Positions 18,901-53,179 of a DNA stretch of 64,000 nucleotides are shown here, one piece after another. Position numbers and translations under genes: made by a program. The DNA is from Acidobacteriota bacterium (GTDB taxonomy: Bacteria; Acidobacteriota; Vicinamibacteria; Vicinamibacterales; SCN-69-37). Under the pieces are notes generated by a model. It saw nothing but the letters and a program-made list of their open reading frames with translations, had not been told where the DNA came from and ran no database searches. How positions within the stretch are numbered: position 1 is the first letter of the stretch; each line of letters begins with the position of its first letter. Where the stretch lies: contig JANLHE010000192.1 of the NCBI GenBank assembly GCA_024653875.1, positions 565-64,564 on the forward strand, in the 5' to 3' direction.

Positions 18901-20841
18901 GTGCCGTTCCAGACGAAGTTCGGCGAGGTGCCTGGCGGGTACTTCCCCATCAAATACGACCCTGAAGCGGACCCGAAGGCGTACGCGCACAACGTCAAAG
19001 AACTCGCCGAGCAGATGATGCGAGGCCAGACCACGTCGAGCACCACCCGACGTGGCTTCACTCAGGCCAGACAAGAGGTCGTCAAGAACCGCCGGATGCG
19101 TCTGGACTTCAGCACGATCTGGCAGCACACCGCTGACGTGATTCACGACCTGACACATCACGAGATGTTGATCGACGTGAACCGCATCCTGCGGCACCCC
19201 AAGGTGGCTACGGCAATCCGTCAGCACTACGGGATGCCGGTGTACCGCGAACTCCAGGCGTCCCTCCAGGACATTGCCGCCGGGGACGTGCCGGTCCAGC
19301 ACCAGGGGGAGCGCGCCCTTGAGTGGCTCCGACAGGGTACATCGATCGCGCGTATGGGCTGGAACCTGATGACCTCGGCGGTGCAGCCGTTAGGCCTCAC
19401 GGTGTCCGTGGTTCGTATCGGTCCGAAATGGGTGGCGCGTGGGGTCGCCCGCTGGCTCGGCGATGCCGCGCGCATGGAGAACACCGTCTCGCAGATACAC
19501 AAGCAAAGTGCGTTTATGCGCCTGCGTCACAAGACGCTGGAACGCGAAATCCGCGAGATCCAGAGCCGGATTCAGCCACGTGGGGCTTGGGCCTTGTCTG
19601 CGCTCGGCCGCAGCGTGGCCGGCGGCGCTGGCGCTCGTGCGGGCCATGAGATTGCGTCGAAGTACGCCGCAGTTGAGGACTCGTATTTCTGGTTTATTTC
19701 GCGGGCTCAGATGGTGGCTGATATCCCGACGTGGCTGGGCGGGTATGAGAAGGCCCGGGCGCAGGGCAACGATGAGAAGCGATCCGTGGCGTTGGCGGAC
19801 CAGGCCGTTATCGACTCGCAGGGGTCTGGGCACATCAAGGACATGGCGCACTCTCAGCGCGGCACGCCGTCGCTGAAGTTGTTTACCCAGTTCATGGGCT
19901 ACTTCAGCGTGGTCTACAACCAGGGGTCTGAGGCCATCGGCCGCACACGGTTGAGGAACCCGGCATCGATCGGACGTCTCGCCGTGGACCTGTTGATGCT
20001 CTACACGGTCCCGATGGTCTTGGAAGAGGCGCTGCGGGCCGCCATTTCCGGTGGCGATGACGACGATGACGACTTGCTGGTCAAATTTGCCAGAAGTCAG
20101 GCGGCGTACTTCTTGAATACCGTCGTGTTCGCTCGGGAATTGGGCGGCGCGGTAGAAGGGTATCGGTATAGCGGGCCTGCCGGTGGAGGCGTGTTTGATG
20201 AAGCCGCCAGACTCATCACGCAGATCGGACAGGGCAAAGTGGACGACCCACTGGTGAAGTCACTCAACAACACGGCGGGTATCGTGTTCCACTATCCGGC
20301 GACGCAAGTGGAGCGGCTAGTGCGGGTTGCGCTGGCGCTCAAGGATGGCACCGCTACCCCGTCGATGCTGTTTCGGGCCACGGCCGGCAACGCCTCTGAA
20401 CGGCCCGACTTGTCGGCCGCGGCTCGCACGGTGCGATCGGGTGAGCAGCAGCAGTCGAAGCGCGCCCAAGAGGCCGTGGCGGCCTCGGTGGAAGCGTTCT
20501 TCCAGTTGCCACCGGCACGGCAAACACAGGATGAGATTATCCAGCGCACCAGGGCATTAGCTAAGGCGCTGTATGCCGATCCGGACGTGCGAGACGACAA
20601 GTTCAGCGACTTGCTCACTAATCACCGGGTGGGCGTCGCGCGCGGCCAGAAAGACCAAGTGCTCAATGCTGTGCTGACGGCTGGCAGCAACGCGCAGAAA
20701 TTGGCGGTCCTGGCGGCGGCTAGCGAGAAGATGTCGCCAGACGACTTCAGGGCGTGGGTGAAGAAAACCAGGCCACTCCAGGTGGTCTCAAGCACCGTGC
20801 TCGACCAAGCGATGGCAGCGGTGAACGCGCGCGCGCGATAG
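6982..20841 (+). CDS. Giant polyvalent protein (4,619 aa) with multiple enzymatic modules; probably virion-packaged effector
   Basis: Uninterrupted ORF. Motifs read in order: HEVTH (nt 7510), a hydrophobic block (7990-8735), HLTV and HVTI (9325, 9556), GGPGSGKST (11191), YHGT/GSYFT (12496, 12568), EEIQSDWH, HELAH (14761) and HEYGH (16429). Confidence 0.8.
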   Translation: MAFQNFGLLGSTMGGLTRRLSARTPTTSRLTPFKPVSSHDDEEDDPYQIVRFKPVASHTQEPPEEEDRFQITNFTPLGQMTPAPSHRVDPLALLKIEPNVAATKQTDQDDTGDLGAAWKRFQTKFPSAAQAIGYVRFGDPALMDKKKVDGWVNSERGIEINPSRLSRDSDLESLIAHEVTHLLRDDGDAEGRANAIEKAYKVSMLPTMRPVSSHGASTKPSTTRTPISNKDDPLRVVNFVPFERNPIAIGPAQPRPMSMSDLMRAEMNKAPLQAGAIVDLTVPDRDPHFDVSGSLPIKTPQRLYMTPGAKPGDDPTFSPEMPKPDAPFTPKGAKVPEMLSRGVVSGVSSLAAGAGGMLQAVAAEGSAAERHGQALVELDKKIQKLARPAERYLVDVFENPELAKDPEWWAYTAGTTLGSMVGFMVPAQAGAMIGGRLAVGAAALLSRTAQARELFMGTGFVLGGGVVEGLIEGGSAFNDAIAAGKSKKEAGEIAASVAALNVPLIAGTAGLGYLPQLFNAGGAKSAAKRTIQWFSGGMMESGQEVGQQGISNRAAGRPITEGMGTAAVGGFIGGGVAGPTIGAMNTEDSKASARGTQDPGQTRFYENMTANLMTPPRPPSGPTSPGPVAPSVAPTPAAPEIVTFTPADKVKEPAVSPDVSRGTSPDPAVLQQQAERFSDLRALEAQLKDTNSPKRRQEIEFELTGIRRHYEDTYQAIEQAGVDPVQVRHTVEQGQPEAPSEPYSYSTTQFNLPEPVAERVLDLGRKIPDVDLAEDGRETEPHLTVKYGLHTEDVEEVRAALADMKPFKVKLGATSFFPNGESDSGDVLKVDVSSAYLSLLNKRLAKALDHSDTKAYSPHVTIAYLKAGRGEAYTNDDALKGTEILVDRITFGGKNGQRVEIPLGTQAQPVPPQEFQTGQQAAKEEIALSDQQWKAATDRWVAARRDLESGAISPAQFEAEQARFLALTDDLSRANEAPLGAPALATPFAQMSREEQNVAVSPLVPDAASVEPSTTQPEWPVVELPRTDKAQSAPQAKPGRFLVDAKAGTMATAPKGARPGIGQVLVRYSDTGKQTVLQVGKKVAPRDLRKLKALERPVPPVVAPTVPASQREHFDQLLKDARQNGYEGDDKTLEQLYLQKLDEARLANDGATLASEDADSSRELLVAISKMGGIGLEAEGEAGMRGELETMLEGLNRHAGIIRRGARAGQRLPASFRRAGGLPGAPNIITRSGGRPLDTVLESIHEDPRWEHRFESLSDFTQAIDDAIRIETGTTAAPAAAYGPRLDATLEMLGVAPGTDWWEPGRIIVTPHRQGAADEANERAAIRGLNARRDTLQQDYEAQFGRVVNDDNMRELLGAHSPDRRWGNLNAVRSSSGAAVRQVFRQILDEPMDPTRDAVLLTAGGPGSGKSTSAGEDPSFFAVFDSTLHNYEQAKALIEQVKASGRVAVVRYVRRNPVEAFMDGVLTRALDPSNGRPVSIKSHAEKHVEGRETIARLIGEYADDLQVPIVLAESTPSGLKPIDDLESAVEEARVYNDVDALRADIETALRREIASGRQGLTPELAARLGLRPEDRPAVAGDGQPEARRGDQERPAEGLQPAPLAADPTPVSAAPPVRSKAVSPARTEDILATGEIQPRLPGDVGAVRDQEVADAKLELKRADPDDFSLSAQAVDAGQPRLSEPDDSDSSPAYKAAYAAYETAHDRFQPFKQDYENRTISPDVYLREAKAFDAAKDALDAAERAERAARRAARKPAEAPRQSFSAKSLQSVFGITATEAEAAVAIAEAMDLDTDKILLTAGGVPGKGALEQPGQQGTKAFKKWFGRSVVVDTEGPRRVYHGTSGPKPISAFKESVSGLFGRGSYFTESAEDADNYAGNKLVKLKDGSVRTSGRSAIVPVYLQIEHPFEMDGRDTWQDLFEVVMGRRPKNDDAEMPSPAQARALQAAMVAQGHDGIVIKNFEANLTEDFTTHYVVFSPEQVKSATGNQGTFDPKNPNILYQEAPVNAPKLSKWYYSNISKALATWQPKGTAAQLLAHLQKFKGANEEAETIGFGAWLKSQEKVTRAEAQAWLGEHQIHVQDVVRRSRGTDDQQEARSERYMQALQVLERHNLDVASEEANDPPIALIHREERDDRGELKALIAEDIKALPQEAQDAWDVVEEQERLAASKDLKYAAYQTPGGTGYREVLLTLPASATRTVWRVIDRNNNHIIAKFDNYEEAAKLADEKDLAVSEKQDVPAKDTYQSSHWDEPNVLAHVRMNDREVDGQRVLFVEEIQSDWHPALRKHLAAKAAGQLTTKVPDAPFKGAGWKKLALKRALAMAAEGGYDGLAWTTGSMQQDRYDLSKQAHEISAFNRGDGTFDFMVRAKDTNRTHDISKVARDQVSEHIGKDLAERVLKQPAGEWQGYTGLDLKVGGQWAENLYDRELPNLANDIVRKYGVKAGTIELPNTNKVMAYSGPSNVTGDDLDKLIKVSRGLGNSTISPITGREAGHPVERASVTKQAQDIRAYMQAGHSFVEAMNTHGSPMMAGMVGGKMVDEDRGVSVHHLPLTQQMREDVRDNGLPLFQGAKAAVEFAEGGKAIIRALERPDVSSPAHELAHVARRFLLDRNVATEDRLGISDEDIATAETWAGAANGVWGREAEEKFARGFERYLQIGKAPTTKLQALFDKFATWLTDIYRDLKGSDIDVEISAPMQAVFDKLVTRRTAREQRDAAPERQSKPAPTKARASTPTPVSAEPVTGTGDAGAELTFNKRNRRRGGLTWEDVVGQNQTLRVSQTTKANVYPQPEYAALIDGGMEPVVAHIVKQVYDAIAVKPQTTAPTDADLQAYIAGVNRVMDGTLAWANNKDAIRKWANAQVRTARAMQGTPTSLSDLVDVPTLSLSVYPESKQGLSDALRNEARLIGGRRVLGALHAGYSETARATKAVAGGWPAKQEAWQRQGYKVVSSAEAVQVKTGERYVSGGKETVHYLEINRRGFHDVASAEAAEARKAAFKPWLLLKKSGRIEGEFDTKADAEDAARAAVKRESKAIDVRGTAVTEAERTGPPRREPGQNISSDVLLETFEFKGINFGNWLKGKGGNEAERQLHLNHAYDAFADMADILGIPPKAISLNGLLGVAFGAQGSGKNAAHFVPGVNEINLTRTQGAGTVAHEYGHALDHYFATQAGLAGYPEPFLTEHVSHPGTTGYNRAGGKRTAPDTLRPEIAEAFRVIVSSMNRVLESGAQAETRLLMAGTQALKSVNGWLGQIKRDFTSAGVAESAFDALAERIRTLDLGDGKVAVGNAQLSPAVAALRDLYKSAGGSRAYSLDSIKSLQSNVDYLAYLKSDAIAGRAHTPQTVSTDYSRQASALDQEKGGKAYWSTNLEKFARAFDAFVRDRLAARATRNTYLSRDGQPATWEPQGAERIAINEAFDTLIGEFQVTPDTNVLYQEAPPTASELEQIRARRAALVSELGATLRGRAGMGIDFDALELVVDIIKSYLDEGIVRFKDAALAFRRDYPMGADLDDYFESAWQEATGETHLVADALASPETETDIAVAPETALATKASELSKTRRTKQDVIDDLSDALKDLRQTIRSGGVQMREARVPYALIAATAKEQVAAAIVRDLRPAEALATVRPLVTKATEAAARGEFDKAGDLEHEALSALALYREQQRVVKDIDARVRRARLLGTKSAQQRLGLAGQEMYRAPVNAILDGYSFERFGRKALDKRASLLEFIEKATEENMPVDIPAAVREGANRVPYQELTVGEFVEVTDTLDHLLHLSGLKNRLLKSTSTRTFNEQMDDLAASIAAHSRGARRTALEPHLASNQIGRGMAGFAAWQRKLGSLIREMDGGKDGGPMWEAVMRPINASADDETVRQEAAAVAFADTNKTFTTDDKVDLSKPMEIPEIGDSLTRAARIIVALNWGNPGNQQRLMSGFDWSESQVQAILDTLTEKDWTFVKAVWAHINSYKAEIVAKQERVFGVAPEMIEGVPFQTKFGEVPGGYFPIKYDPEADPKAYAHNVKELAEQMMRGQTTSSTTRRGFTQARQEVVKNRRMRLDFSTIWQHTADVIHDLTHHEMLIDVNRILRHPKVATAIRQHYGMPVYRELQASLQDIAAGDVPVQHQGERALEWLRQGTSIARMGWNLMTSAVQPLGLTVSVVRIGPKWVARGVARWLGDAARMENTVSQIHKQSAFMRLRHKTLEREIREIQSRIQPRGAWALSALGRSVAGGAGARAGHEIASKYAAVEDSYFWFISRAQMVADIPTWLGGYEKARAQGNDEKRSVALADQAVIDSQGSGHIKDMAHSQRGTPSLKLFTQFMGYFSVVYNQGSEAIGRTRLRNPASIGRLAVDLLMLYTVPMVLEEALRAAISGGDDDDDDLLVKFARSQAAYFLNTVVFARELGGAVEGYRYSGPAGGGVFDEAARLITQIGQGKVDDPLVKSLNNTAGIVFHYPATQVERLVRVALALKDGTATPSMLFRATAGNASERPDLSAAARTVRSGEQQQSKRAQEAVAASVEAFFQLPPARQTQDEIIQRTRALAKALYADPDVRDDKFSDLLTNHRVGVARGQKDQVLNAVLTAGSNAQKLAVLAAASEKMSPDDFRAWVKKTRPLQVVSSTVLDQAMAAVNARAR

Positions 20842-32551: not shown

Positions 32552-32720
32552 ACATCTCCACGGCTGAAGCCGGGAGCTTTCCACCTAGGCCGCGAGGCCT
32601 GGCAGTTCTGAGGCTGGTTTACAGGCAGCCTGAGCCCGAGACGCGATGTTCCGGGCGGCGTTGAAATCGGCGGATATGGAGTGGTCGCAATGCAGACAGC
32701 GAAATTCGGCTTGGCTCTTT
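32540..32720 (-). ncRNA. Candidate omega-RNA (reRNA) overlapping the tnpB 3' end; extent is a guess
   Basis: By analogy with TnpB systems. The hairpin CTCC(A)CGGC-TGAA-GCCGGGAG at 32555-32575 lies 10 nt beyond the tnpB stop. No covariance model was run. Confidence 0.3.
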
Positions 32721-33673
32721 CGGTTGCCCTTCTCACAGTGGCCGCATTGACTACAGGTGCGACTCGTGTTGCGGGGATCGACGGCGACGACACGCACGCC
32801 CGCCAGTGCCGCCTTGTACTCGACGAAGGCCCTGAGTTGTGCAAAGGCCCAGCCGCCCTGTCGGTTGCGTTGCTTCCGCCGAACCGTGGCCCGCTCGCGG
32901 ATATGCGTCAAGTCTTCCACGCCGATCCCGCGCGCCGTGTCTTTGGCGGCCTGAACAATCTGTTTACTGATGCAGTGGTTCTCGTGCCGTCGGAATCTCG
33001 ACTCCTTCTTTGCGATTCGCTTCAGTTTCTTTTTTGCTCCCCGCGTGTTCCGTCGTTGCAAGGCGCGTCGTTGCTTCGTGTGCTTCCGCCGGACGCGCTC
33101 GACAGCCTCGCCGGTGTGCGTCGTGCCGTCACTGTCGGTCGCCAAGTTCACGATGCCAAGATCCACGCCAAGGAAATCAGCGGGTTCAATCGGCGCACCG
33201 TCAGGAACAGTAATGCTCGCGTAGAGGTAGAACTGCCCATCGCGCAGGACCAGATCGACCTGTCCCTTCATGCGGTCAAAGCGTTGCCGTTGGTACTCGC
33301 CGTAGATCAAGGGCACCAACTCCCGGCCGTCCAATGTCAGCAGGCTCACGGTGTCCATGCCTTTGAAGGACATCAAACGTTCGTCATACGTCATCGCGCC
33401 ATCGGGCCGGAAGACGGGGCAGACCGTCTTGTCACGGGCGAAGTACTCGACGGCCTTGCCGATGGCGCGCACCGCCATTTGACTCGACAGTCCGAACTTC
33501 TCCCGGAGTTGGTAGTACGTCAGCCGATGGATGCTCGGTTGACTCCGCAGGCCCGCCTCGAAGCCGACGCGCGCGGCATAGGTGGCGGCGGCGTTGAAGG
33601 CGCGCATCGTGGCCCGCAATTGCGCGGCTTGCTTAGCGGTCGGCAGCAGGCGCAATTGCAAAGTCAGAACCAT
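32585..33673 (-). CDS. tnpB: TnpB RNA-guided endonuclease (RuvC-like plus zinc ribbon), 362 aa
   Basis: Internal Met (MVLTLQLRLLPT) of track ORF 32585..33826. RuvC contexts GVDLGIVNLATDSDG, IGVEDL and SADFNAARNI. Zinc ribbon CSQCGHC...CLHCDH. Confidence 0.85.
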   Translation of the reverse strand: MVLTLQLRLLPTAKQAAQLRATMRAFNAAATYAARVGFEAGLRSQPSIHRLTYYQLREKFGLSSQMAVRAIGKAVEYFARDKTVCPVFRPDGAMTYDERLMSFKGMDTVSLLTLDGRELVPLIYGEYQRQRFDRMKGQVDLVLRDGQFYLYASITVPDGAPIEPADFLGVDLGIVNLATDSDGTTHTGEAVERVRRKHTKQRRALQRRNTRGAKKKLKRIAKKESRFRRHENHCISKQIVQAAKDTARGIGVEDLTHIRERATVRRKQRNRQGGWAFAQLRAFVEYKAALAGVRVVAVDPRNTSRTCSQCGHCEKGNRKSQAEFRCLHCDHSISADFNAARNIASRAQAACKPASELPGLAA

Positions 33674-33679
33674 ACGGAT

Positions 33680-33709
33680 ATTGTAGGACTTATACTGTCC
33701 GTAAGTCAA
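33680..33709 (-). promoter_or_regulatory. Near-consensus sigma70-type promoter for tnpB: TTGACT-N18-TACAAT
   Basis: On the minus strand, TTGACT is at 33709-33704 and TACAAT at 33685-33680. The -10 ends 6 nt before the tnpB ATG (33673), which implies a very short leader. Confidence 0.5.
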
Positions 33710-33777
33710 CCCACCGACCGAGAGGGGCGACTCTCCTCCCCACAGCTTAAGCTGGGGGTTTCCGTGTCGTCCATGCG

Positions 33778-34185
33778 ATGAGAATCCACGCGCAGCGACG
33801 GTCGCACGACTGCGGCGTGGCGGCATTGGCGTCGTTCATCGGGACTGCCTACGAGGACGCCTATGTGGCAGCAGCAGCGGCGTCTCCGCGCTTCCTGCAA
33901 CGGCAAGGGTTGACCATCAAGGAACTGCTGCGAATGTCAGCGGCCTTCGGGCGGCCCTTGGTGCAGCTCCATTGGCGCAAGGTGGACGTGGATGAGCATG
34001 TCGGGATTCTCGGGGTGAACTGGCACAAGTCCCAATGGAAGCGGCACGGGGCCACGGGGCATTGGGTGATTCTGCGGGCCGGCACCATCATCGATCCTTC
34101 GGGGCCGTCGTTTGACGACGCCACCGACTACCTGGTGACAAACAAGGGCCGCGTGGGGACGCTGCTCATGGAGGCCATGCGATGA
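33778..34185 (+). CDS. Papain-like cysteine peptidase, C39-like
   Basis: Track ORF. HDCGVAALASFIG gives the Cys context and GATGHWVIL the His context, as in C39-type peptidase domains. Confidence 0.45.
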   Translation: MRIHAQRRSHDCGVAALASFIGTAYEDAYVAAAAASPRFLQRQGLTIKELLRMSAAFGRPLVQLHWRKVDVDEHVGILGVNWHKSQWKRHGATGHWVILRAGTIIDPSGPSFDDATDYLVTNKGRVGTLLMEAMR

Positions 34186-35427: not shown

Positions 35428-36663
35428 CTAAAATGTCGTCCTCGTGCGGTGCCGCCGGCGCGCCAAGCACGCGGCACAGTGGCGATACTTGGCCTGCGCC
35501 GTGATCGGGACCCGGCAACTCGCGCGCCAGCACTGGCCTGGAGACCACGGAACCCCGGCGCGCTGGGCCGGCAGGACTGGGCCGGCGGCGGCCGGCGCCG
35601 CGGGGAAGGTCTGCCCGAGGCGCGCGCCTTTCTGCTCGAGCGCACGTTGCATGGCGCGCATGACGTACCGCTCGGTCGTCTGGCGGTTCCCGTGGCGCAT
35701 CAGGGCCTTCGCCAGGTCGAGATCGTCGGTGAGGTCGAAGACAACCGTGCCGAAGGAGTGGCGCAGGTCGTAGGGCCGCACAGGGGCCGTCACGCCGGCG
35801 CGGCGCGCGGCCAGCGTGAAGGACTTGTAGAGCGAGGACCGACTGAACGGCCCCCAACACTTCAAGCGGGCGAACTCGCGGAAGGCGTCCACGGCGGCCG
35901 GCATCAAGGGCAGCACGCCGCCAGGCACCCCGGCGCCCTTCTGCCGCCGCGGGAGGCGAATCAGACCCCGCTCGAGGTCCACGTCAGCCGACGTCAAGTG
36001 GACCAACTGGGCGGGCGGCAGGCCGGAGTAGGCCAGGACCCGGACCCGCGCCTTGGTTTGGGATCCGCGCGGCCGCGTCTGCCCGTGCACAGGGCGTCCC
36101 ACGTCGGGCATGTGCGCGATAATGCGCTCGATCGTGGGGTAGTCCAGGTCCCGGGCGACCGGGTCGGGCTCGCGGATTTCATCGACATCCCGCACCGGAT
36201 TGGGCGCCCGCTTGCCGTCGAGGACGGTCCAGAGGTTGCTGAGGGCCCGCAGCCGCTTGTTGATGGTGCCGGGGCCAACCGGCCGGGGATCGTGGGCACT
36301 CCGAGGGGCGATCGCCCAGCGGTCCCGTGCCTCGCGGATATCGATCGGCCGAATGGCGTCCCGCGGCCGCGTGCCGAAGAGGGCAATCCATCGGGTGATG
36401 TCGGCCACGCGCTGGGCGTACGTAGGCATCGTTTGGACCGCGCGCAGGTAGCGCCGGGCGTCGCCTTCGAATGTGCCCTGGTTGGCCCGTTGCTTCCGCG
36501 TGATCCGCAGGTGCGCCTGTTGATCCGCGCGCCAGGCGACCATGACGGACATGGGCGTGTGCAGTGGAAAGGTCTGTTTGAAAGGCGTGAGTCCACGGCC
36601 TCGAGAGACGACGGCCCGCCAGCCAGCGCCGTACCGGTAGATGCCGCGGGCGCCTGTGGGCAT
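35428..36663 (-). CDS. int: Tyrosine recombinase / phage integrase
   Basis: Track ORF. Contains YDLRHSFGT (the xxLR box) and HGNRQTTERYV (His plus the catalytic Tyr context). Has an N-terminal SAM-like region and lies next to the tRNA fragment. Confidence 0.85.
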   Translation of the reverse strand: MPTGARGIYRYGAGWRAVVSRGRGLTPFKQTFPLHTPMSVMVAWRADQQAHLRITRKQRANQGTFEGDARRYLRAVQTMPTYAQRVADITRWIALFGTRPRDAIRPIDIREARDRWAIAPRSAHDPRPVGPGTINKRLRALSNLWTVLDGKRAPNPVRDVDEIREPDPVARDLDYPTIERIIAHMPDVGRPVHGQTRPRGSQTKARVRVLAYSGLPPAQLVHLTSADVDLERGLIRLPRRQKGAGVPGGVLPLMPAAVDAFREFARLKCWGPFSRSSLYKSFTLAARRAGVTAPVRPYDLRHSFGTVVFDLTDDLDLAKALMRHGNRQTTERYVMRAMQRALEQKGARLGQTFPAAPAAAGPVLPAQRAGVPWSPGQCWRASCRVPITAQAKYRHCAACLARRRHRTRTTF

Positions 36664-41675: not shown

Positions 41676-42619
41676 CCACGACCGCACTCGCACCCGTCGA
41701 ACGGCACGAACTGGCGTTGGACCGGCCGGCCACCGCTGTTGAAATCCGCGCCCAGGTGAACCTGATTCAGGAAGTGATGAAGGCCGTCATGATGGACGGC
41801 GTCCATTTCGGCACGATTCCTGGCACACCTAAGCCCACCCTCTACAAGCCGGGCTCCGAGAAGATCCTCAGCACGTTCCGGATCGCCATCGAGCCCATCG
41901 TCGCGGACCTGTCCACGCACGACGAAGCGCGGTATCGAGTGGAGACGCGTGCGACGTCACAAGCCACCGGCATGTATCTCGGGTCGGGCACAGGTGAAGC
42001 CTCCTCGAACGAAGAGAAGTACCGCTGGCGGAAGGCCGTGTGCCAGGAGGAGTTCGACGCCACGCCCGAGGATCGGCGCCGGAGCGTCTGGAAGAAAGGC
42101 CAGAACGGCGCCTATCAGATCCCGCAGGTCAGGACGAATCACGCGGATGTCGCCAACACCATCCTGAAAATGGCGAAGAAGCGGTCCCAGATCGACGTGA
42201 CACTGACGGTCACCGCCGCCTCTGACGTGTTCGCGCAGGACATCGAGGACCTACCAGAGGGCGTGCGTGAGGCCGTGGCGTCCGAGGAAGGCGCCAGGCC
42301 CGCCGCGAAGCCGCCCGTCCAGGCCCCCCAACGCAAGTCGCAGAGCACGGCACCGGCTGGCAATCTCGCGTCGTGCAAGGTGAAGGTCAGCGGCCTGCAG
42401 TCCAAGGATGGCGAGAGCGAGAAAGGCCCGTGGCGCAAGTGGGCGTTCAAGGGGAGCGACGGCAAGTGGTACTCGACCTTTGACACCATCGTGTCCACCA
42501 CGCTCCGAGAGGCCGAAGAGGGCGGGGACGTCGTGGAACTGACGTTCACCGAGGACAAGTACGGCCGGAACATCAAGACCATCGCCATCGTGAGCCGTGA
42601 ACCTGGAGCGGAGGGATGA
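41672..42619 (+). CDS. Putative single-strand annealing recombinase (family uncertain)
   Basis: GGAGGG SD and an ATGA overlap. Motifs HFGTIPGTPKPTLYKPGSEKIL and ILKMAKKRSQIDVTLTVTAASDVFAQD. Immediately followed by a PD-(D/E)XK exonuclease gene. Confidence 0.4.
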   Translation: MTTTALAPVERHELALDRPATAVEIRAQVNLIQEVMKAVMMDGVHFGTIPGTPKPTLYKPGSEKILSTFRIAIEPIVADLSTHDEARYRVETRATSQATGMYLGSGTGEASSNEEKYRWRKAVCQEEFDATPEDRRRSVWKKGQNGAYQIPQVRTNHADVANTILKMAKKRSQIDVTLTVTAASDVFAQDIEDLPEGVREAVASEEGARPAAKPPVQAPQRKSQSTAPAGNLASCKVKVSGLQSKDGESEKGPWRKWAFKGSDGKWYSTFDTIVSTTLREAEEGGDVVELTFTEDKYGRNIKTIAIVSREPGAEG

Positions 42620-43272
42620 GCGTCCCTGGCACCCTCTGGGTGAAGAACGACGCGCGCATGACCTTCGACGAAGCGAGTCATGTTTACCGGCTCGGCGACA
42701 TGGTGCTGACTTCCGTCACACAGATCCTCGCAGAGGCGGGGCTGGCCCAGTTCGACGGGCCATGGTTCTCGGATGCCGTGAAGGCCCGCGGGACCCATCT
42801 GCACACCGCGATCGCCCTGGACGTGGAAGGGGACCTGGACGAGGACACCCTGGACGAGCAGCTGCTGGGCGGCGTGACCGGCTGGCGCAAGTTCATGGCC
42901 GACACCGGCGCGCGGATCGAGTTCGCGGAGTTCCCCTTGTGCGACCCGGAGTCGCGCACGGCGGGCCGACTGGATTACATCGTTGTGATCCCTGATCAGA
43001 AACACCCCGGCCGGACACTCCGCACGGTGCTGGACGTGAAGCGCGCGCTGTATCCGTCGGCGGCAATTCAGTTAGCCGCTTACGCCGAGATGGCCCTCCC
43101 GCTCTACGCGCAGCACCCGTTGTTCTCCCGCGCAGCCTTGGTGCTGCCCGGGGACGGCTCGTACCGGCTCCACCGATTCACCGACCCGACTGATCGCGCC
43201 ACCTGGCACGCCGCCGTGCGCGTCGTGAACTGGCGCAAAGAACACCTGAAGGAGTTGGCCCATGTCGCATGA
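42616..43272 (+). CDS. PD-(D/E)XK (RecB/Cas4-like) exonuclease
   Basis: Motifs SHVYRLGDMVLTSVTQIL, GTHLH, GRLDYIVV and LDVKRA (a D...D-x-K arrangement). Confidence 0.55.
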   Translation: MSVPGTLWVKNDARMTFDEASHVYRLGDMVLTSVTQILAEAGLAQFDGPWFSDAVKARGTHLHTAIALDVEGDLDEDTLDEQLLGGVTGWRKFMADTGARIEFAEFPLCDPESRTAGRLDYIVVIPDQKHPGRTLRTVLDVKRALYPSAAIQLAAYAEMALPLYAQHPLFSRAALVLPGDGSYRLHRFTDPTDRATWHAAVRVVNWRKEHLKELAHVA

Positions 43273-43984
43273 GACTGCCGTACTTGAGACCCCGGAAACC
43301 GCCGCGGTCATGGCCCAGGCTTTGACCTGGCCGGAGAAGGCGCGCGCGCTGACCGTCACCAGTGACGAGACGTATGCCGCCGCCGCGGACATCCTGAAAG
43401 GGATCAAGGCGCTGCGTGGGGAAGTGGACGCGGCGTTTGGCCCCATTGTCAGGGCCGCGTTCACGGCCCATCGAACGGCCGTCGAACAGAAGCGGAAGGC
43501 GGAAGCCCCGCTGACGGAGGCGGAAGCCATCATCAAGCGGTCACTGGGGGACTACAACACCGAACAGCAGCGCCTCCGTGACGCGCAGCGCCGGGAAGAC
43601 GAGCGTCTTGCCCGTGAGGCCGAAGAGGCGCGGGTCCTGGCGGAAGCCGCGGCGATGGAATCTGAGGGCCATCAGTTCGGTGACGAGGCGATGGTGGCCG
43701 AAGCCCACGCCATGATCGAGCGGCCCATCGTGGCAGCGCCCATCGCGCCGGCGCCGCGGCCTGTGCCGGCCGTGGCCGGGGTCAGCCACCGCACGACCTA
43801 CAGCGCCGAGGTGACCAACTTCGCGCAGTTCGTGGCGCACATCGCCGCCCATCCCAACCTCCTACCGTTGCTCCAGGTGAATCAGACGGCGTTGAACGGT
43901 CAGGCGCGCAGCCTCAAAGAGATGCTGTCGCTGCCAGGGGTGCGCGTCGTCAAGACCAACACGGTGGCCGCAGGGAACCGGTGA
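43262..43984 (+). CDS. Conserved phage coiled-coil protein (240 aa)
   Basis: Track ORF. Its N-terminus has the pattern typical of proteins encoded next to phage recombinases (LTVTSDETYAAAADILKGIKALRGEVDAAFGPIV). Confidence 0.45.
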   Translation: MSHETAVLETPETAAVMAQALTWPEKARALTVTSDETYAAAADILKGIKALRGEVDAAFGPIVRAAFTAHRTAVEQKRKAEAPLTEAEAIIKRSLGDYNTEQQRLRDAQRREDERLAREAEEARVLAEAAAMESEGHQFGDEAMVAEAHAMIERPIVAAPIAPAPRPVPAVAGVSHRTTYSAEVTNFAQFVAHIAAHPNLLPLLQVNQTALNGQARSLKEMLSLPGVRVVKTNTVAAGNR

Positions 43985-46160: not shown

Positions 46161-46325
46161 ATGGCGACGTTGATACTGCAAATCGTGGCGACGGCAGCGG
46201 CAGTATTTGCCTGCGGGTGTCTCCACAAGGACGCCATAAGCAACGATGTTGATTCCTTTTTAGCTCGCGGGTTGGAGTTGGTATTTCTCACCATGCTCCT
46301 GCTGGCGATCTGGAGGGTTTGGTGA
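46161..46325 (+). CDS. 54-aa membrane protein
   Basis: Below the track cutoff. AGGAGG SD. Two hydrophobic helices. Locally lower GC. Confidence 0.3.
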   Translation: MATLILQIVATAAAVFACGCLHKDAISNDVDSFLARGLELVFLTMLLLAIWRVW

Positions 46326-46573
46326 TGGCGATGCAAGTGACATCAGTTCTGGTGATTCCAACAAACGACACGTTTTCCCTTGGGTGCGCGACCTTTGGAG
46401 CCTCGCGGCGGGCGGATGGTCAGTTTCGCACACTCGTGAATCGTATCGAGCGCGTCTCGAAGAACGGTGAGATGGCTCCGATCCCGTGGCTGACTATCCA
46501 TATCAGCGAAGGCCTCACGGTTGAAGCCAGGGAAGCTGATTGCATCATTGTCACAGAGGCGGTGCGCCTATGA
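46325..46573 (+). CDS. Hypothetical 82-aa protein
   Basis: GGAGG lies 8 nt upstream of the ATG at 46325 (TGATG overlap), in frame with track ORF 46319..46573. Confidence 0.4.
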   Translation: MAMQVTSVLVIPTNDTFSLGCATFGASRRADGQFRTLVNRIERVSKNGEMAPIPWLTIHISEGLTVEAREADCIIVTEAVRL

Positions 46574-46968
46574 CCCCCGACCGCACGGCGTGCCTCGCGT
46601 GGGTGCAGGACAGGGCTGACAAGGCATACAAGGGTGCGCTGTTCGCGTCGGAAGCTGAGCTTCGCAGCACGTCTACGCAAGAGGCGCTGTCTTGGCATCA
46701 ACGCGGTATGGACGATGCTGACGATGCCAATCACTTCGACGCCCTCGCCGCGCTGCTGGAGGCGCAGCAGTGGCAGCCAATTACGACGGCCCCGAAGGAT
46801 GGGACGCCCGTGGTGCTGTATATGGGCGACTGGCTTGAGCCGTGTTTCTTGGCGGCGCATTACGCTGGGGCGTCTTGGCTGGTAGGCCAGCACGCGACCG
46901 TGGACGGGCCGACTCACTGGTTTCCGCTCCCCCTTCCTGTACCGCCCCCAGAGGAGCCGAGCCGATGA
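46570..46968 (+). CDS. DUF551-like phage protein
   Basis: ATGA overlap start. The C-terminal WQPITTAPKDGTPVVLY matches the DUF551 signature as I recall it. Confidence 0.45.
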   Translation: MTPDRTACLAWVQDRADKAYKGALFASEAELRSTSTQEALSWHQRGMDDADDANHFDALAALLEAQQWQPITTAPKDGTPVVLYMGDWLEPCFLAAHYAGASWLVGQHATVDGPTHWFPLPLPVPPPEEPSR

Positions 46969-48311
46969 GTGACCAGACGTTTACGGCAGAGCAGTATGAG
47001 GACGCGGCACAAGCCTCGTTCCTATCCTCGTCCCGGACAGACGCAAGCAAGTTACGGGACATGATCCGCTACGCGGCAGGGCTGGCGAAGGAGAACCAGG
47101 GGTTGACAGCGGAAAGTGCAGGTCGCCTGAAAACGCTGTTGCGCACGGACGAAGAACGCCGCGATGAGTGGACCCGCGCCGAGAACGCCCTTGCGGACTT
47201 TGACGCCCTCCGCGCCGTGATTCAGCAGGAGGTGTTTAACGACGATTCAGCCTCGAACTCCTTTGTTCGCATTGTTGGAGCGGCGGGCCTCTGGCCCAAG
47301 GGGGAGCAGGTGCCTGTCAGTTTGCCGCCACAGGCCGACGCGCTCCCACCGCAGACGCGCACCATGTTCACCGGGGATGAAGTGTCTACCCTACTGGAAT
47401 ACCTGACGCCCAAGGGGGAGCAAGCGCCGACGCAGCCTGTGGACATTACGACCGCCACCATGCAGGCCCATGCCCGACTCGCCAAAGCGCACTTCGTCAA
47501 GCGCGAACACGACCACGATGACGAGGGGGAGCAAGCGCCCGAGCCACGTCCACCTGTTTTTCACCCCACGATGCCCTCCACGTCCGGCGTGTGCAGTCAC
47601 GTTCACCCGCAAACGACCTGTCCGAAGTGTCACCCGGTGCGTGTCGCGGCGGCGTGTCAGCCATTCGATGATGGCCGCGATGTCCGGTGTCAGTGCGAGG
47701 TGTATCAGACGTGCCAGTGGTGCAGGCCCAAGGGGGAGCAAGCGCCACAGGAATCGCCCGCGCCGACACAACCCCAGTGGCGCTGCACCCTCTGCGGCTG
47801 CCTTTGGCGGCGCGAGTGGCCGGATTCGTGGTCCCTGTGGGACACCAATCAACGCTCCTGCGAAGTGTGCGACAACTCGACGGAGTTCGGGCGCGTGATT
47901 ACGCGTGTCGTTCCCTCACCTGCGGAGCGTGCCGAGCAATGGCTCCGGCTGCACGCGAACGATTACAACTCGCCCGCCTCGGTCAAGTGCGCGGTGCGGG
48001 ACTTTGTGACCCACAACGCGGCCACGTGTGCGTACTGCAACCCCGCGCCAGAACCGAAGGGGGAGGCACATCTGCCAGCGCCAGGGCACACCTGCACCTA
48101 CGCGATACCGTTCACGCCAGACGACAAACTCCACGCCGCCGCTGACTTGGAACGGGCGATGGCCGACGTGCCGGACATGCTGCGCGCGGAACACGCCACG
48201 GTCACGAAGGTGATCGCGATGGTGGAGGCACGGCGTTGGGAGACCCGGTGGGAGCGCAGCGAATCAGAGTGGCTCGGCGACGTGCTGGCCGCGCTGCGGG
48301 AGGGCCGCTGA
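46965..48311 (+). CDS. 448-aa Cys-rich modular protein with five PKGEQAP-type linkers
   Basis: ATGA overlap start. Several CxxC pairs. A 20-nt DNA repeat encodes the linkers (see repeat 47295-48070). Confidence 0.5.
   Translation: MSDQTFTAEQYEDAAQASFLSSSRTDASKLRDMIRYAAGLAKENQGLTAESAGRLKTLLRTDEERRDEWTRAENALADFDALRAVIQQEVFNDDSASNSFVRIVGAAGLWPKGEQVPVSLPPQADALPPQTRTMFTGDEVSTLLEYLTPKGEQAPTQPVDITTATMQAHARLAKAHFVKREHDHDDEGEQAPEPRPPVFHPTMPSTSGVCSHVHPQTTCPKCHPVRVAAACQPFDDGRDVRCQCEVYQTCQWCRPKGEQAPQESPAPTQPQWRCTLCGCLWRREWPDSWSLWDTNQRSCEVCDNSTEFGRVITRVVPSPAERAEQWLRLHANDYNSPASVKCAVRDFVTHNAATCAYCNPAPEPKGEAHLPAPGHTCTYAIPFTPDDKLHAAADLERAMADVPDMLRAEHATVTKVIAMVEARRWETRWERSESEWLGDVLAALREGR
47295..48070 (+). 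repeat. Dispersed in-frame repeat CCCAAGGGGGAGCAAGCGCC (2 perfect, 3 partial copies)
   Basis: Copies start at 47295, 47409, 47520, 47727 and 48054, with spacings of 114, 111, 207 and 327 nt. The copies at 47409 and 47727 are identical over 20 nt, including synonymous positions. Confidence 0.8.
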
Positions 48312-49288
48312 TGCCTCTCAGGACGGCGATTCAGTGGACGGACTTTTCGAGCAACCCAATTCGCTTCCGTCGTGCCGACGGCGAGCGCGTGAATTGGGCG
48401 TGCGTAAAGGTGTCGCCTGGGTGCGCGCACTGCTACAGCGCCACGATGGCGCATCGCTTCGGCGGCGAGGACTACACCGCGGGCGAGATGGCGAAGCTCA
48501 CTCCCTACTTGTGCGAGAAGGAACTGCGCGCCCTGCTGACCTCGAAGGCGATCAGCGGCAAGCGCGTGTTCGTCGGCGATATGACGGACATCTTCGGCGA
48601 GTGGGTCAGTGACGAGATGCTCGACCGACTGTTTGCGGCCATTTACATCCGTTCGGATGTGACGTGTCAGGTGCTCACGAAACGGGCTGATCGGGCGCAG
48701 AAGTACTTCACGGCTCGCTCGTACGATCAGCGGCCGTTGAGCGGGCAGTGGTTTCAATGGGGCCGCTTCTATCGAGGCGTGCCGCCCGAACAGGGTTGGC
48801 CAATCCGAAATCTCTGGCTGGGCGTGAGCGCCGAGAACCAGCAGGCGGCCGACGCGCGCATCCCGCTGTTGCTCCAGACACCGGCCGCGGTGCGGTTCGT
48901 TTCGGCTGAGCCGCTGATTGGACCCGTCTCGTTGTCGTTTGCGATGCGTCCGCCTGGTCCACCTGATCCGCCAGTCACAGGACCGGCATGGAACCGACGC
49001 ATGGTTGAGCCGCGCCCATGGATCGACTGGGTAATCGTCGGCGGCGAGAGCGGGCACGGTGCGAGGGATTGCGACGTGGCTTGGGTGCGGGAGATTGTCA
49101 AGCAATGCGGATGGTCGGGCGTGCCGGTGTTCGTAAAACAACTCGGCTCCCAACCGATCATTGGGCGCCGTGCCGAAGGCGCGTTCGTGCCGGACTACGA
49201 ATACCACTTCAGCGATCGCAAGGGCGGCGATCCGGGGGAATGGGCCGCTGATCTCCGCGTCCGCCAGTTCCCGGAGGATCGGTCATGA
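48311..49288 (+). CDS. Gp37/Gp68-family (DUF5131) protein
   Basis: TGATG overlap start. Motifs IQWTDFSSNP...GCAHCYS, VFVGDMTDIF, WLGVSAENQ, FVSAEPL and WVIVGGESG. Confidence 0.65.
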   Translation: MPLRTAIQWTDFSSNPIRFRRADGERVNWACVKVSPGCAHCYSATMAHRFGGEDYTAGEMAKLTPYLCEKELRALLTSKAISGKRVFVGDMTDIFGEWVSDEMLDRLFAAIYIRSDVTCQVLTKRADRAQKYFTARSYDQRPLSGQWFQWGRFYRGVPPEQGWPIRNLWLGVSAENQQAADARIPLLLQTPAAVRFVSAEPLIGPVSLSFAMRPPGPPDPPVTGPAWNRRMVEPRPWIDWVIVGGESGHGARDCDVAWVREIVKQCGWSGVPVFVKQLGSQPIIGRRAEGAFVPDYEYHFSDRKGGDPGEWAADLRVRQFPEDRS

Positions 49289-51711: not shown

Positions 51712-52214
51712 TGGCCAAGCCCACATACTGGGAACTGCTTAAGCACCCAAACTGGCAGCGCAAGCGGCTTGAGGTGATGCAGCGCGACAACTTCACCTGC
51801 GTGTCGTGTGGTAGCACAGAAAACACCCTCAATGTGCATCACTCCTACTACACCAAGGGCGCAATGCCTTGGGATTACCCCGCCGATAGTCTAAAGACGC
51901 TGTGCCAGCAGTGCCACGGCGATCACCATGAGGCCATGGAAAATCTCAAGGCGTCCATTGGGCTTCTTGATATCACCGTCCTCGACATGGTTCGCGGATA
52001 CGTGGACGGCCTGCTCTGGTCCGAGGGTGACTACAGCAGAAAAGTCCACATTGAAAGCTACGAATACGCACAGGGCGTGGGCCATTGGTGGGGCGTCTCA
52101 GCGGACGACATTATCGCGCTGGTGAACTCAAAAGGCGTCATATCGGTTGACACACTAAGCGACTTGGAAACAGGGTTTATATCCGCGTCACCCGAGCACA
52201 AGGAGCCAGAGTAA
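51711..52214 (+). CDS. HNH-type nuclease domain protein
   Basis: WQRKRLEVMQRDNFTCVSCGS...LNVHHSYY...LKTLCQQCHGDHH. Lower GC than the flanking genes. Confidence 0.55.
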   Translation: MAKPTYWELLKHPNWQRKRLEVMQRDNFTCVSCGSTENTLNVHHSYYTKGAMPWDYPADSLKTLCQQCHGDHHEAMENLKASIGLLDITVLDMVRGYVDGLLWSEGDYSRKVHIESYEYAQGVGHWWGVSADDIIALVNSKGVISVDTLSDLETGFISASPEHKEPE

Positions 52215-53179
52215 TGGCTTGGGTGAAACTCGACGACAAGATGACTAAGGGTCCAAAGGTGAAGCGGGCCGCGCTGGAGCTTGGCGGTGTCCATCCCCGC
52301 GCCCGTGTGGTCTACGTGTGGGGCGATGCGATGTCCTATTGCAACCTCAACCTTACTGATGGTTTTGTGCCTGACTACGAAATTGCCGAATATGACGATG
52401 ACGACACGCAGGCGGTGTTTCGTGCGATGTCGGTTGGCGATGATCACTTGGGCGCCATTGTCGAGCGAGACGAGGCCCGCAAAGGTTGGGTGTTTCGCAA
52501 TTACGGCGAGTATCAGCCCCTCAAGGCTGATGTTGAGGAACGGCTGCAAAAGGAGCGGGATCGTAAGCGTAAACCAAAAGGCGAGGACTTCCGCGCGGAG
52601 GAATCGCGGATTCCGCTTGGAGGAATCGCGGATTCCGGACATACCGATCCGATCCGGACCGACCCGGACCAGACCGTCCCGAACCTACCCGAACCAGAAC
52701 CGGACCCTGTAGAGCCATCGGCGACGCCGGCTGATTTAATGGCTGTGTGGAACGACATCACGCAAAGGCCCATCCCTCGATGCCGCGAACTCACCGACAA
52801 ACGCCGGAAGCACGCCAAGACTCGACTCGCTAAACGCCCATTGTCCGAGTGGCGCGAAATCATAGCCATTGTCCAGTCGTCGAGGTTTTGCCGGGGTGAA
52901 AACGATCGAGGTTGGACGGCTTCGTTTGACTGGCTAATCGCATCGGACGACCCTGCGGTGAAGGCGTTGGAAGGCACCTACGACGAACGCAGGCGTGGGG
53001 GTTTGACTGAGGTGAAGCCGCTCCACACGCCAGCCGAAATTAAACAAGCGGCCCGTGCGCTCGGATCGCGCAGCTGGGCGGCAGAGTGCGTGCGCCTTCA
53101 CGGTGGCCGATGTGGCAGTGCGCCATCGCATGATGACCGGATGGTGCTGGACGCCGGGAAAGCGCAGGCCGCGTCATGA
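52214..53179 (+). CDS. Putative replication initiation/organiser protein
   Basis: The N-terminal WVKLDDKM... region and the C-terminal NDRGWTASFDWLI...ALEGTYD resemble phage replication-protein termini. The linker contains DNA-level tandem palindromes. Confidence 0.45.
   Translation: MAWVKLDDKMTKGPKVKRAALELGGVHPRARVVYVWGDAMSYCNLNLTDGFVPDYEIAEYDDDDTQAVFRAMSVGDDHLGAIVERDEARKGWVFRNYGEYQPLKADVEERLQKERDRKRKPKGEDFRAEESRIPLGGIADSGHTDPIRTDPDQTVPNLPEPEPDPVEPSATPADLMAVWNDITQRPIPRCRELTDKRRKHAKTRLAKRPLSEWREIIAIVQSSRFCRGENDRGWTASFDWLIASDDPAVKALEGTYDERRRGGLTEVKPLHTPAEIKQAARALGSRSWAAECVRLHGGRCGSAPSHDDRMVLDAGKAQAAS
52597..52637. repeat. Perfect 19-bp tandem direct repeat GGAGGAATCGCGGATTCCG x2 (22-bp period), each holding the palindrome GGAATC-GCG-GATTCC; candidate ori iterons
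   Basis: Copies at 52597-52615 and 52619-52637. The period is not a multiple of 3, so the two copies are translated in different frames (EESRIP versus GGIADS). Confidence 0.55.

Follow-up and report, generated by a model that had tools for sequence, protein, structure and literature searches.

The 64,000-nucleotide (nt) window described here covers positions 565-64564 of a 67.7-kb contig (JANLHE010000192.1, in assembly GCA_024653875.1 of an Acidobacteriota bacterium) that represents a temperate phage. The subject of this report is a gene at 46965..48311 of the window, on the plus strand and within the early/replication region, whose product of 448 amino acids (aa) is a mosaic of modules separated by copies of one short sequence. 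The start of this gene overlaps the preceding stop as ATGA, with AGAGGAG located 9 nt upstream of the ATG at 46965, and the protein, as read from the open reading frame (ORF), has no match in Pfam, PHROGs or NCBIfam.

A search with CCCAAGGGGGAGCAAGCGCC, allowing at most three mismatches, returned plus-strand matches at 47295 (two mismatches), 47409 (none), 47520 (three) and 47727 (none); 0.01 matches of this 20-mer were expected, and four or more were reached in none of 100 shuffles. The exact copies at 47409 and 47727 were found by a repeat finder to be the same over 21 nt, GCCCAAGGGGGAGCAAGCGCC, while a fifth copy at 48054 has only CCGAAGGGGGAG in common with the others, agreeing at 11 of the first 12 nt and diverging beyond that point. 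The recurrence of a 20-nt sequence in frame, as claimed in a preliminary description of this DNA made from the letters alone, is thus borne out by four copies and a fifth represented by its 12-nt core. All five lie on a single strand, as direct copies within 780 nt, and all are read in the same frame of one 448-codon ORF that runs from the ATG at 46965 to the stop at 48311. Copies 1 to 4 start 114, 111 and 207 nt apart and copy 5 follows copy 4 by 327 nt; each of these spacings is divisible by three, as in-frame exchange requires. The encoded peptides are PKGEQVP, PKGEQAP, DEGEQAP, PKGEQAP and PKGEAHLP, starting at residues 111, 149, 186, 255 and 364, respectively, and share the general form (P/D)(K/E)GE(Q/A). 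A search of the whole assembly (3,213,183 bases in 657 contigs) found the 17-mer confined to this gene, and the peptides PKGEQ and KGEQ[AV]P have no occurrence outside it.

The copies, referred to below as joints 1 to 5, divide the gene product into a series of parts, all coordinates being on the plus strand. The N-terminal helical part (aa 1-110, 46965..47294) is defined by family alignments and is predicted by AlphaFold2 (AF2) to form helices over residues 8-106, with a predicted local distance difference test (pLDDT) score of about 70-80; its last 30 residues (aa 81-110, 47205-47294) are the family-conserved ALRAVIQ...AAGLW. Pattern searches place joint 1 (CCCAAGGGGGAGCAGGTGCC, PKGEQVP) at 47295..47314, joint 2 (the exact 20-mer, PKGEQAP) at 47409..47428, joint 3 (GACGAGGGGGAGCAAGCGCC, DEGEQAP) at 47520..47539 and joint 4 (again the exact 20-mer, PKGEQAP) at 47727..47746, PKGE of joint 1 being invariant in all six members of the family described below. 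Module 1 (47316..47408) has 31 aa, with a Pro-rich lead followed by a short helix, and module 2 (47430..47519) has 30 aa with one predicted helix; phmmer found no relatives of either. Module 3 (47541..47726), of 62 aa, is rich in Cys and His, and no relatives of it were found beyond this contig. Module 4 is composite: module 4a (aa 262-322, 47748..47930), delimited by phmmer, is a Cys-rich mini-domain of the form W(R/K)CxxCGCLWR...SWSL.D..Q..C..CDN, and module 4b (aa 318-363, 47916..48053) is also found as the terminal part of P0009, an unrelated protein of 122 aa. Joint 5 (48054..48077), which consists of CCGAAGGGGGAG and a divergent tail and encodes PKGEAHLP, corresponds in alignment to the one PKGEA site that the family member P0027 has. 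The C-terminal helical part, FTPDDKLHAAADLER...DVPDMLRAE...WLGDVLAALREGR (48078..48308), is common to P0002 and P0003 and is shortened in P0027.

Comparison of the units between the copies showed that they are mutually unrelated, with z below 2.3 in all 15 pairwise comparisons at both the DNA and the protein level; the claim of unrelated flanks in the preliminary description holds at both levels. Paralogues of the modules are absent from the assembly as well. Since the units are neither similar to one another nor represented elsewhere in the assembly, decayed tandem duplication is excluded, and a tandem-repeat protein arising by internal duplication was rejected as an explanation because no unit similarity extends beyond the short motif. 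GC content, overall and at third codon positions (GC3), does not differ notably among the modules. Both AF2 models put the joints into segments between helices that are non-helical and of low confidence; this placement is weak evidence and is given little weight because the mean pLDDT of the full-length model is just 51 and that of the P0027 model 62. No useful lead came from the ESM Atlas, where the top feature score was 0.82 and every template modelling (TM) score by query was 0.24 or below.

Relatives of the 448-aa protein were sought with a word index covering 5.8 billion proteins and with phmmer over 1.84 billion representatives. The family amounts to six sequences among the 5.8 billion, which are the contig's own record (P0001) and five relatives: P0002 (303 aa), P0003 (294 aa), two proteins from short contigs, P0014 (114 aa, 679-nt contig) and P0027 (125 aa, 586-nt contig), and P0035, encoded by ORF 3306-3992 of L006, the one locus obtained from the Joint Genome Institute (JGI) metagenomes, and called L006 below. 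A word-index search among shorter proteins with the region aa 70-125 yielded nothing. A motif search of IMG/VR produced two matches (L004 and L005), both unrelated by tblastx and in the wrong context, and the family alignment gave 38 pattern matches in IMG/VR and 80 in the GTDB representative genomes, none of which was confirmed. The 401 genomes of the same order that were searched gave a match in the genome of this assembly alone, and tblastn against INPHARED phages gave none.

The relatives share the N-terminal end of the protein and, where they are complete there, the C-terminal end as well. AAGLWPKGE, the longest invariant run of the family, is present in all six members and closes the N-terminal helical part, and the C-terminal helical part, F(T/S)PDDKLHAAA.LER..DVPDMLRAE...WLGDLLAALRE, is found in the query, P0002 and P0003 and in a short form in P0027, while the C-terminal tail of L006 aligns with it partially (.LER... 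and ..ALRE). Between these parts, the relatives differ by whole blocks, each of which begins or ends at a copy or a few residues away from one. In P0002, PKGEQVP is followed by an unrelated 50-residue stretch rich in Pro, Thr and Gly and then by module 4, with PQGEARLP where joint 5 lies; in P0003, PKGEQVP leads into another Cys-containing module, GGEQAPT and the C-terminal part; and in L006, PKGEALP is followed by a small CxxC...CxxC piece and a short C-terminal helical tail. A lone site, AAGLWPKGEA-ASAYTPDERNALASDLER, is present in P0027. BLASTP aligns P0027 with the query twice, over residues 81-127 (through joint 1) and 364-407 (from joint 5), which means that a duplicated PKGE site flanks the block aa 111-363. 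The PKGE site thus occurs on both sides of this block and between its parts, and singly in the minimal protein P0027. Matches of relatives on the N-terminal side end at query residues 119-127 and those on the C-terminal side begin at residues 267, 359 and 364. Joint 1 is of the QVP type in four of the six members. The C-terminal part itself contains a 26-nt repeat (48164-48189 and 48278-48303, 77% identical and 114 nt apart) that encodes DVPDMLRAE and DVLAALREG; P0027 lacks the 38 residues between these two peptides, and a short direct repeat thus delimits a second indel.

The four-module array is known from one contig alone, which raises the question of whether alleles with different inserts were chained by the assembler at the shared 21-mer. 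Such an artefact is hardly credible. The final k-mers of common metagenome assemblers exceed 21 nt, and assembly of the array requires reads for every module-joint-module junction. Moreover, the 448-codon frame is unbroken, and P0002 and P0003, which come from other samples, independently have joints on both sides of their inserts.

Domain limits in proteins outside the family provide a separate line of evidence on the joints. Excluding P0001, 28 of the 33 phmmer matches (P0004-P0008, P0010-P0013, P0015-P0026 and P0028-P0034) have their best stretch on module 4a, starting at query residues 249-272 and hence on joint 4 (residues 255-261) or just past it; the best stretch of P0002 starts at residue 266. 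P0009 carries module 4b at its C-terminus, with 53% identity over aa 318-360, and this match stops at residue 360, three residues short of joint 5. Both parts of the composite module 4 are thus also present in other proteins, and the coincidence of match limits in unrelated proteins with the joints places the joints at domain borders. The module 4a mini-domain, W(R/K)CxxCGCLWR...SWSL.D..Q..C..CDN.(D/E)F in its longer form, has no Pfam model. It occurs alone, in proteins of 58-77 aa, or fused at either end of many unrelated and mostly uncharacterised proteins, and P0007 carries two copies of it.

The copies agree not only in peptide but also in codons. According to codon usage taken from a crude gene set of the window, the chance that two independent PKGEQA stretches match in all six codons is about 0.007; GGG, which makes up 24% of the Gly codons in this set, is used in all five copies, and CAA, with 28% of the Gln codons, in three of four. 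The codon identity among the copies exceeds what codon bias alone explains. It also has a sharp end, as the final Pro codon differs among copies 1 to 4 (CCT, CCG, CCC and CCA, respectively). One further PKGE in the same phage (52575-52586), in the replication-initiator gene, is written CCA AAA GGC GAG, showing that the phage can encode this peptide without the run of G. The preliminary description had argued from identical nucleotides to selection on the DNA or RNA; this step does not follow, because copying by descent leaves the same identity. Comparison with relatives is possible at one site, joint 1, and with one relative, L006, the sole relative with DNA. There, AGLWPKGE is encoded by GCC GGA TTG TGG CCG AAA GGC GAG, compared with GCG GGC CTC TGG CCC AAG GGG GAG in this phage, so that six of the eight codons differ and the run of G is absent from L006. 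Retention of PKGE with other codons shows that selection acts on the peptide at joint 1, where the nucleotides are not conserved. Homologues that keep the peptide with divergent codons, along with a single full-length product, would according to the preliminary description refute its view, and L006 supplies the first of these at copy 1 only.

In a second explanation, PKGEQxP is a repeated recognition, docking or cleavage site, for instance for a protease or for the product of the translationally coupled gene immediately downstream, a DUF5131 gene (48311..49288, plus strand, Pfam E 1.6e-56) that overlaps the stop of the mosaic gene by one base. DUF5131 is described in an excerpt of PMC9477430 as a subgroup of the radical S-adenosylmethionine (SAM) superfamily. 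Selection would then maintain the peptide, and the nucleotide identity of the copies would mean only that the motif had spread recently. In favour of this, conservation within the family is strongest in AAGLWPKGE, present in 6/6 members and kept as a peptide in L006 despite the changed codons, and GEQAP reappears in P0003 behind a different module. A DUF5131 gene is also found directly 3' of the scaffold-family gene in L006 (about 3993-5052), abutting or overlapping its stop, and thus in both loci for which DNA is available. Set against this are the inner copies, which retain only xxGEQAP without the AAGLW context, and joint 5, which differs between close relatives (PKGEAHLP and PQGEARLP). Selection on the peptide alone leaves both the identical rare codons and the sharp boundary at 20-21 nt unexplained, no protease or partner was identified, and none of 11 other DUF5131 loci from IMG/VR has the pairing with a scaffold-family gene or a PKGE-type motif. 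A functional peptide motif as the main cause of the repeats is therefore judged rather unlikely.

A third explanation places the signal in the RNA: AAGGGGG, which strongly resembles a Shine-Dalgarno (SD) sequence, would pause ribosomes after each module or drive internal initiation and so generate nested products. The repeat core can pair with the canonical anti-SD consensus (the 16S 3' end of the host itself is absent from the assembly), and true starts nearby are preceded by GGAG-type sites, AGAGGAG before the ATG at 46965 and GGGAGGG before the ATG at 48311. Copy 1 is followed by an in-frame GTG 3 nt past GAG and hence 5 nt past AAGGGGG, and PKGEQVP, possibly with this GTG, is kept in four of the six family members. 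Four of the five copies, however, have no start codon within 15 nt (copy 2 has a GTG 18 nt past GAG, and none occurs within 21 nt at copies 3-5), so that the internal starts envisaged in the preliminary description would fit copy 1 only. In having a strongly SD-like core, AAGGGGG, within a gene, the copies resemble internal SD-type pause and start sites, but a usable start codon is present at one copy in five and the run of G is missing in L006, where PKGE is CCG AAA GGC GAG and the SD-like nucleotides are not conserved. The predicted RNA fold of 46890-47340 is as stable as those of shuffled sequences (z 0.02), and Rfam has no matches in the window. A complement of the core also lies 33 nt upstream of the start codon: CCGCTCCCCCTT (46921..46932, plus strand), which is the complement of the joint core AAGGGGGAGC(A)GG and encodes PLPL inside the upstream ORF. 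It pairs with copy 1 in the minimum free energy (MFE) fold, whose overall z is the value given above, and its relation to the joints is possibly one of chance. Pausing at intragenic SD-like sequences is a disputed phenomenon. The core 9-mer occurs nine times genome-wide, with 5-13 expected, a depletion no greater than the general avoidance of G-runs; selection removes SD-like sequences from within genes, according to the title of bioRxiv 10.1101/278689. Nothing positive favours ribosome pausing at the copies, the signal being missing in L006, and an RNA-level signal is very unlikely to account for them.

Protein-binding iterons, in this case intragenic binding sites of a phage or host protein, were also among the earlier proposals, and five direct copies on one strand that are unique in the assembly do recall them. 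Like the iterons of lambda O-type origins, the copies are direct repeats of about 20 nt in a phage coding region. Origin iterons, of about 17-22 bp each, stand close together at a regular, helical-repeat spacing, and distances of 114, 111, 207 and 327 nt are far from it; the 20-mer lacks dyad symmetry, the copies share one frame and fall on the borders of protein modules, L006 is without the nucleotide motif, and the gene lies about 4 kb from the initiator-like gene (52214-53176). Spacing, symmetry and location therefore all fail to fit, and a better iteron candidate exists within the initiator-like gene itself. This O/DnaD-like gene, assigned by PHROG, contains TTCCGCGCGGAGGAATCGCGGA, a partly palindromic 22-nt sequence in 2.2 tandem copies (52589-52637), followed by a repeat of period 15, both within 52589-52685. 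Origins of the lambda type have their iterons inside the replication-initiator gene, and the segment 52589-52685 is likely to be an origin with iterons in the manner of lambda. For the five copies in the mosaic gene, an iteron function is exceedingly improbable.

The data presented above lead us to favour, with moderate confidence, a model in which modules were joined in frame across a short linker sequence common to them, the copies marking the seams and owing their identity to copying. Among the three options of the preliminary description, recombination joints of shuffled mini-domains gained comparative support, since the homologues differ by whole blocks at or near the copies, while iterons and internal ribosome sites lost ground. 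The 20-mer would be the coding sequence of a seven-residue linker, PKGEQxP, in a beads-on-a-string phage protein. The basic protein of the family would consist of two helical parts and a joining loop with the invariant AAGLWPKGE, and in this phage four unrelated small modules would have been spliced in frame into the PKGE loop, two of them short helical pieces, one rich in Cys and His, and one a composite of the Cys-rich mini-domain and a second piece. At each junction, the loop sequence would then be repeated and lead into a Pro-rich stretch, and the synonymous identity would stem from this copying and not from a separate constraint on each copy. The likeliest process would be unequal or short-homology recombination between alleles in which the sequence flanks an insert on either side, as is the case in P0002, P0003 and this gene; alternatively, an insertion that duplicates its target would produce an identical pattern. 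The same repeats could mediate the in-frame loss of modules. We infer that recombination across the 20-mer built the array, and did so recently.

Several observations weigh against this model of joining across a shared linker. A stretch of 12-21 nt is short for homologous recombination, and the model needs the shared sequence on both partners, whereas it is known in family members alone. No donors of modules 1-3 were identified, the codon comparison extends to joint 1 of one relative in five, and a family of six limits how far the case can be generalised. In addition, the inner joints are of the QAP type here (three copies) and in P0003 (GGEQAP), while joint 1 is mostly QVP, and the peptide motif itself could therefore be selected. 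Crossover within the motifs is deduced from sequence comparison and was not observed. Beyond the two PHROG exonuclease matches (42616-43981), the phage yielded no candidate for a single-strand annealing protein; nor was a recombinase found beside these exonuclease-like genes, whose neighbours drew blanks in Pfam, NCBIfam and PDB.

A stronger version of the same idea would regard the 20-mer as a dedicated site under selection for in-frame exchange, a nucleotide-level "domain shufflon", whose exact sequence is maintained together with its rarer GGG and CAA codons. In such a system, co-infecting phages or prophages would exchange Cys-rich and helical cassettes, accumulate them or lose them again within the PKGE loop of a helical scaffold protein. 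We regard this as quite improbable. Were it true, the result would be combinatorial variation of an early protein, which might for example be engaged in an arms race with the defences of the host, and the inner QAP-type joints shared with P0003 should retain their synonymous sites in relatives that have diverged.

The closest known principle is that of the motif-bounded variable segments of T-even phage adhesins, although the 448-aa protein does not belong to that family. In those adhesins, exchanges cluster in conserved motifs that bound variable segments, as described in an excerpt of PMC3157838. Like the glycine-rich motifs and hypervariable segments of gp38 and the His-boxes of gp37, the joints are short conserved motifs that part unrelated variable segments, and the relatives P0002, P0003, P0027 and L006 vary in the segments that these motifs enclose and have their breakpoints at the motifs, as relatives of the T-even adhesins also vary in their segments. 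The two differ in several respects: (i) the 448-aa protein has no sequence relation to gp38, as judged by the lack of Pfam or PHROG matches; (ii) its gene lies in the early/replication region and not in a tail-fibre locus; (iii) gp38 has a fixed number of loops on one fold, whereas here whole unrelated mini-domains vary in number from zero to four; (iv) the motifs of gp38 form a structural core, while the joints are predicted non-helical linkers; and (v) exchanges at the motifs are reported for T-even adhesins, whereas crossover is read here from sequences alone.

Two further comparisons are instructive. In lambdoid phages and mycobacteriophages, mosaicism has its module boundaries at gene or domain borders, and short conserved linkers have long been proposed as exchange points. 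The mosaic gene resembles this general pattern in its sharp transitions between unrelated sequences at functional borders and in its short shared junction sequence; phage mosaicism has, however, mostly been described between genes, whereas here five in-frame junctions lie within one gene and have an exact repeat of 20-21 nt. In cyanobactin precursors of the PatE type, conserved recognition sequences flank variable cassettes. The near-identical motifs around unrelated inserts and the adjoining gene for an enzyme of the radical SAM superfamily are reminiscent of such precursors, but a protein of 448 aa with large helical end domains and inserts of 30-100 aa, including domains of ordinary proteins, is unlike them, and no protease or maturation genes were identified for it.

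The exact 20-mer was also encountered in four Burkholderiales-type metagenome-assembled genomes (MAGs) among the GTDB representatives, inside one intergenic hairpin element of about 75 nt that resembles repetitive extragenic palindromic (REP) sequences. This element is present in two to six copies per genome at no more than one mismatch, sometimes in tandem (L020 and L022), and in loci L019-L022 it lies at about 1470-1550 of each, between a stop codon and the start of a gene on the opposite strand. As a source of the joints it was rejected, since it has the 20-mer alone in common with the phage and the assembly does not contain it. Over a 518-aa part of RpoB, the identity of the assembly to three of the four MAGs is only 56%, and the fourth gave no match; by a rough estimate, about one chance family of the 20-mer is expected in 596 Gb. 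The limited sharing, the absence of the element and the distance in RpoB lead us to ascribe the match to chance.

If the copies are indeed seams of module joining, this gene would hold an unusually clean natural record of domain shuffling, with five in-frame seams in one gene, the minimal relative representing an empty site and the other relatives different inserts. It would provide a concrete case for the old idea that short conserved linkers guide the exchange of modules in phage proteins. The analysis also adds two items that Pfam lacks: a widespread Cys-rich mini-domain and a small family of helical scaffold proteins whose PKGE loop is prone to insertions. In practical terms the value is modest, as the family is rare and the putative scaffold protein has no assigned role.

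The remainder of the window agrees in character with a temperate phage. PHROG matches identify an integrase on the minus strand (35428-36660) and a TnpB-type transposase (32585-33823), as well as a DNA methyltransferase, small and large terminase subunits, head-closure and ejection proteins, and an endolysin. A single ORF of 4,619 codons at 6982-20841 has PHROG matches of unknown function, and an HNH endonuclease gene comes after the DUF5131 gene. The ORF immediately upstream of the mosaic gene (46540-46968) has an N-terminus, MTPDRTACLAWV..., that resembles the N-terminus of the family member P0014 (BLASTP E 0.005), and it resembles the C-terminal part of the 448-aa protein weakly (E 7.9); its own C-terminal half is a different module. 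With a P0014-like N-terminus joined to another C-terminal module, the neighbouring genes thus look mosaic too. Finally, an ORF of 84 aa is well conserved between the window (46319-46573) and L006 (5833-6201) and is placed differently relative to the scaffold gene in each, indicating that gene order has been rearranged between this phage and L006.

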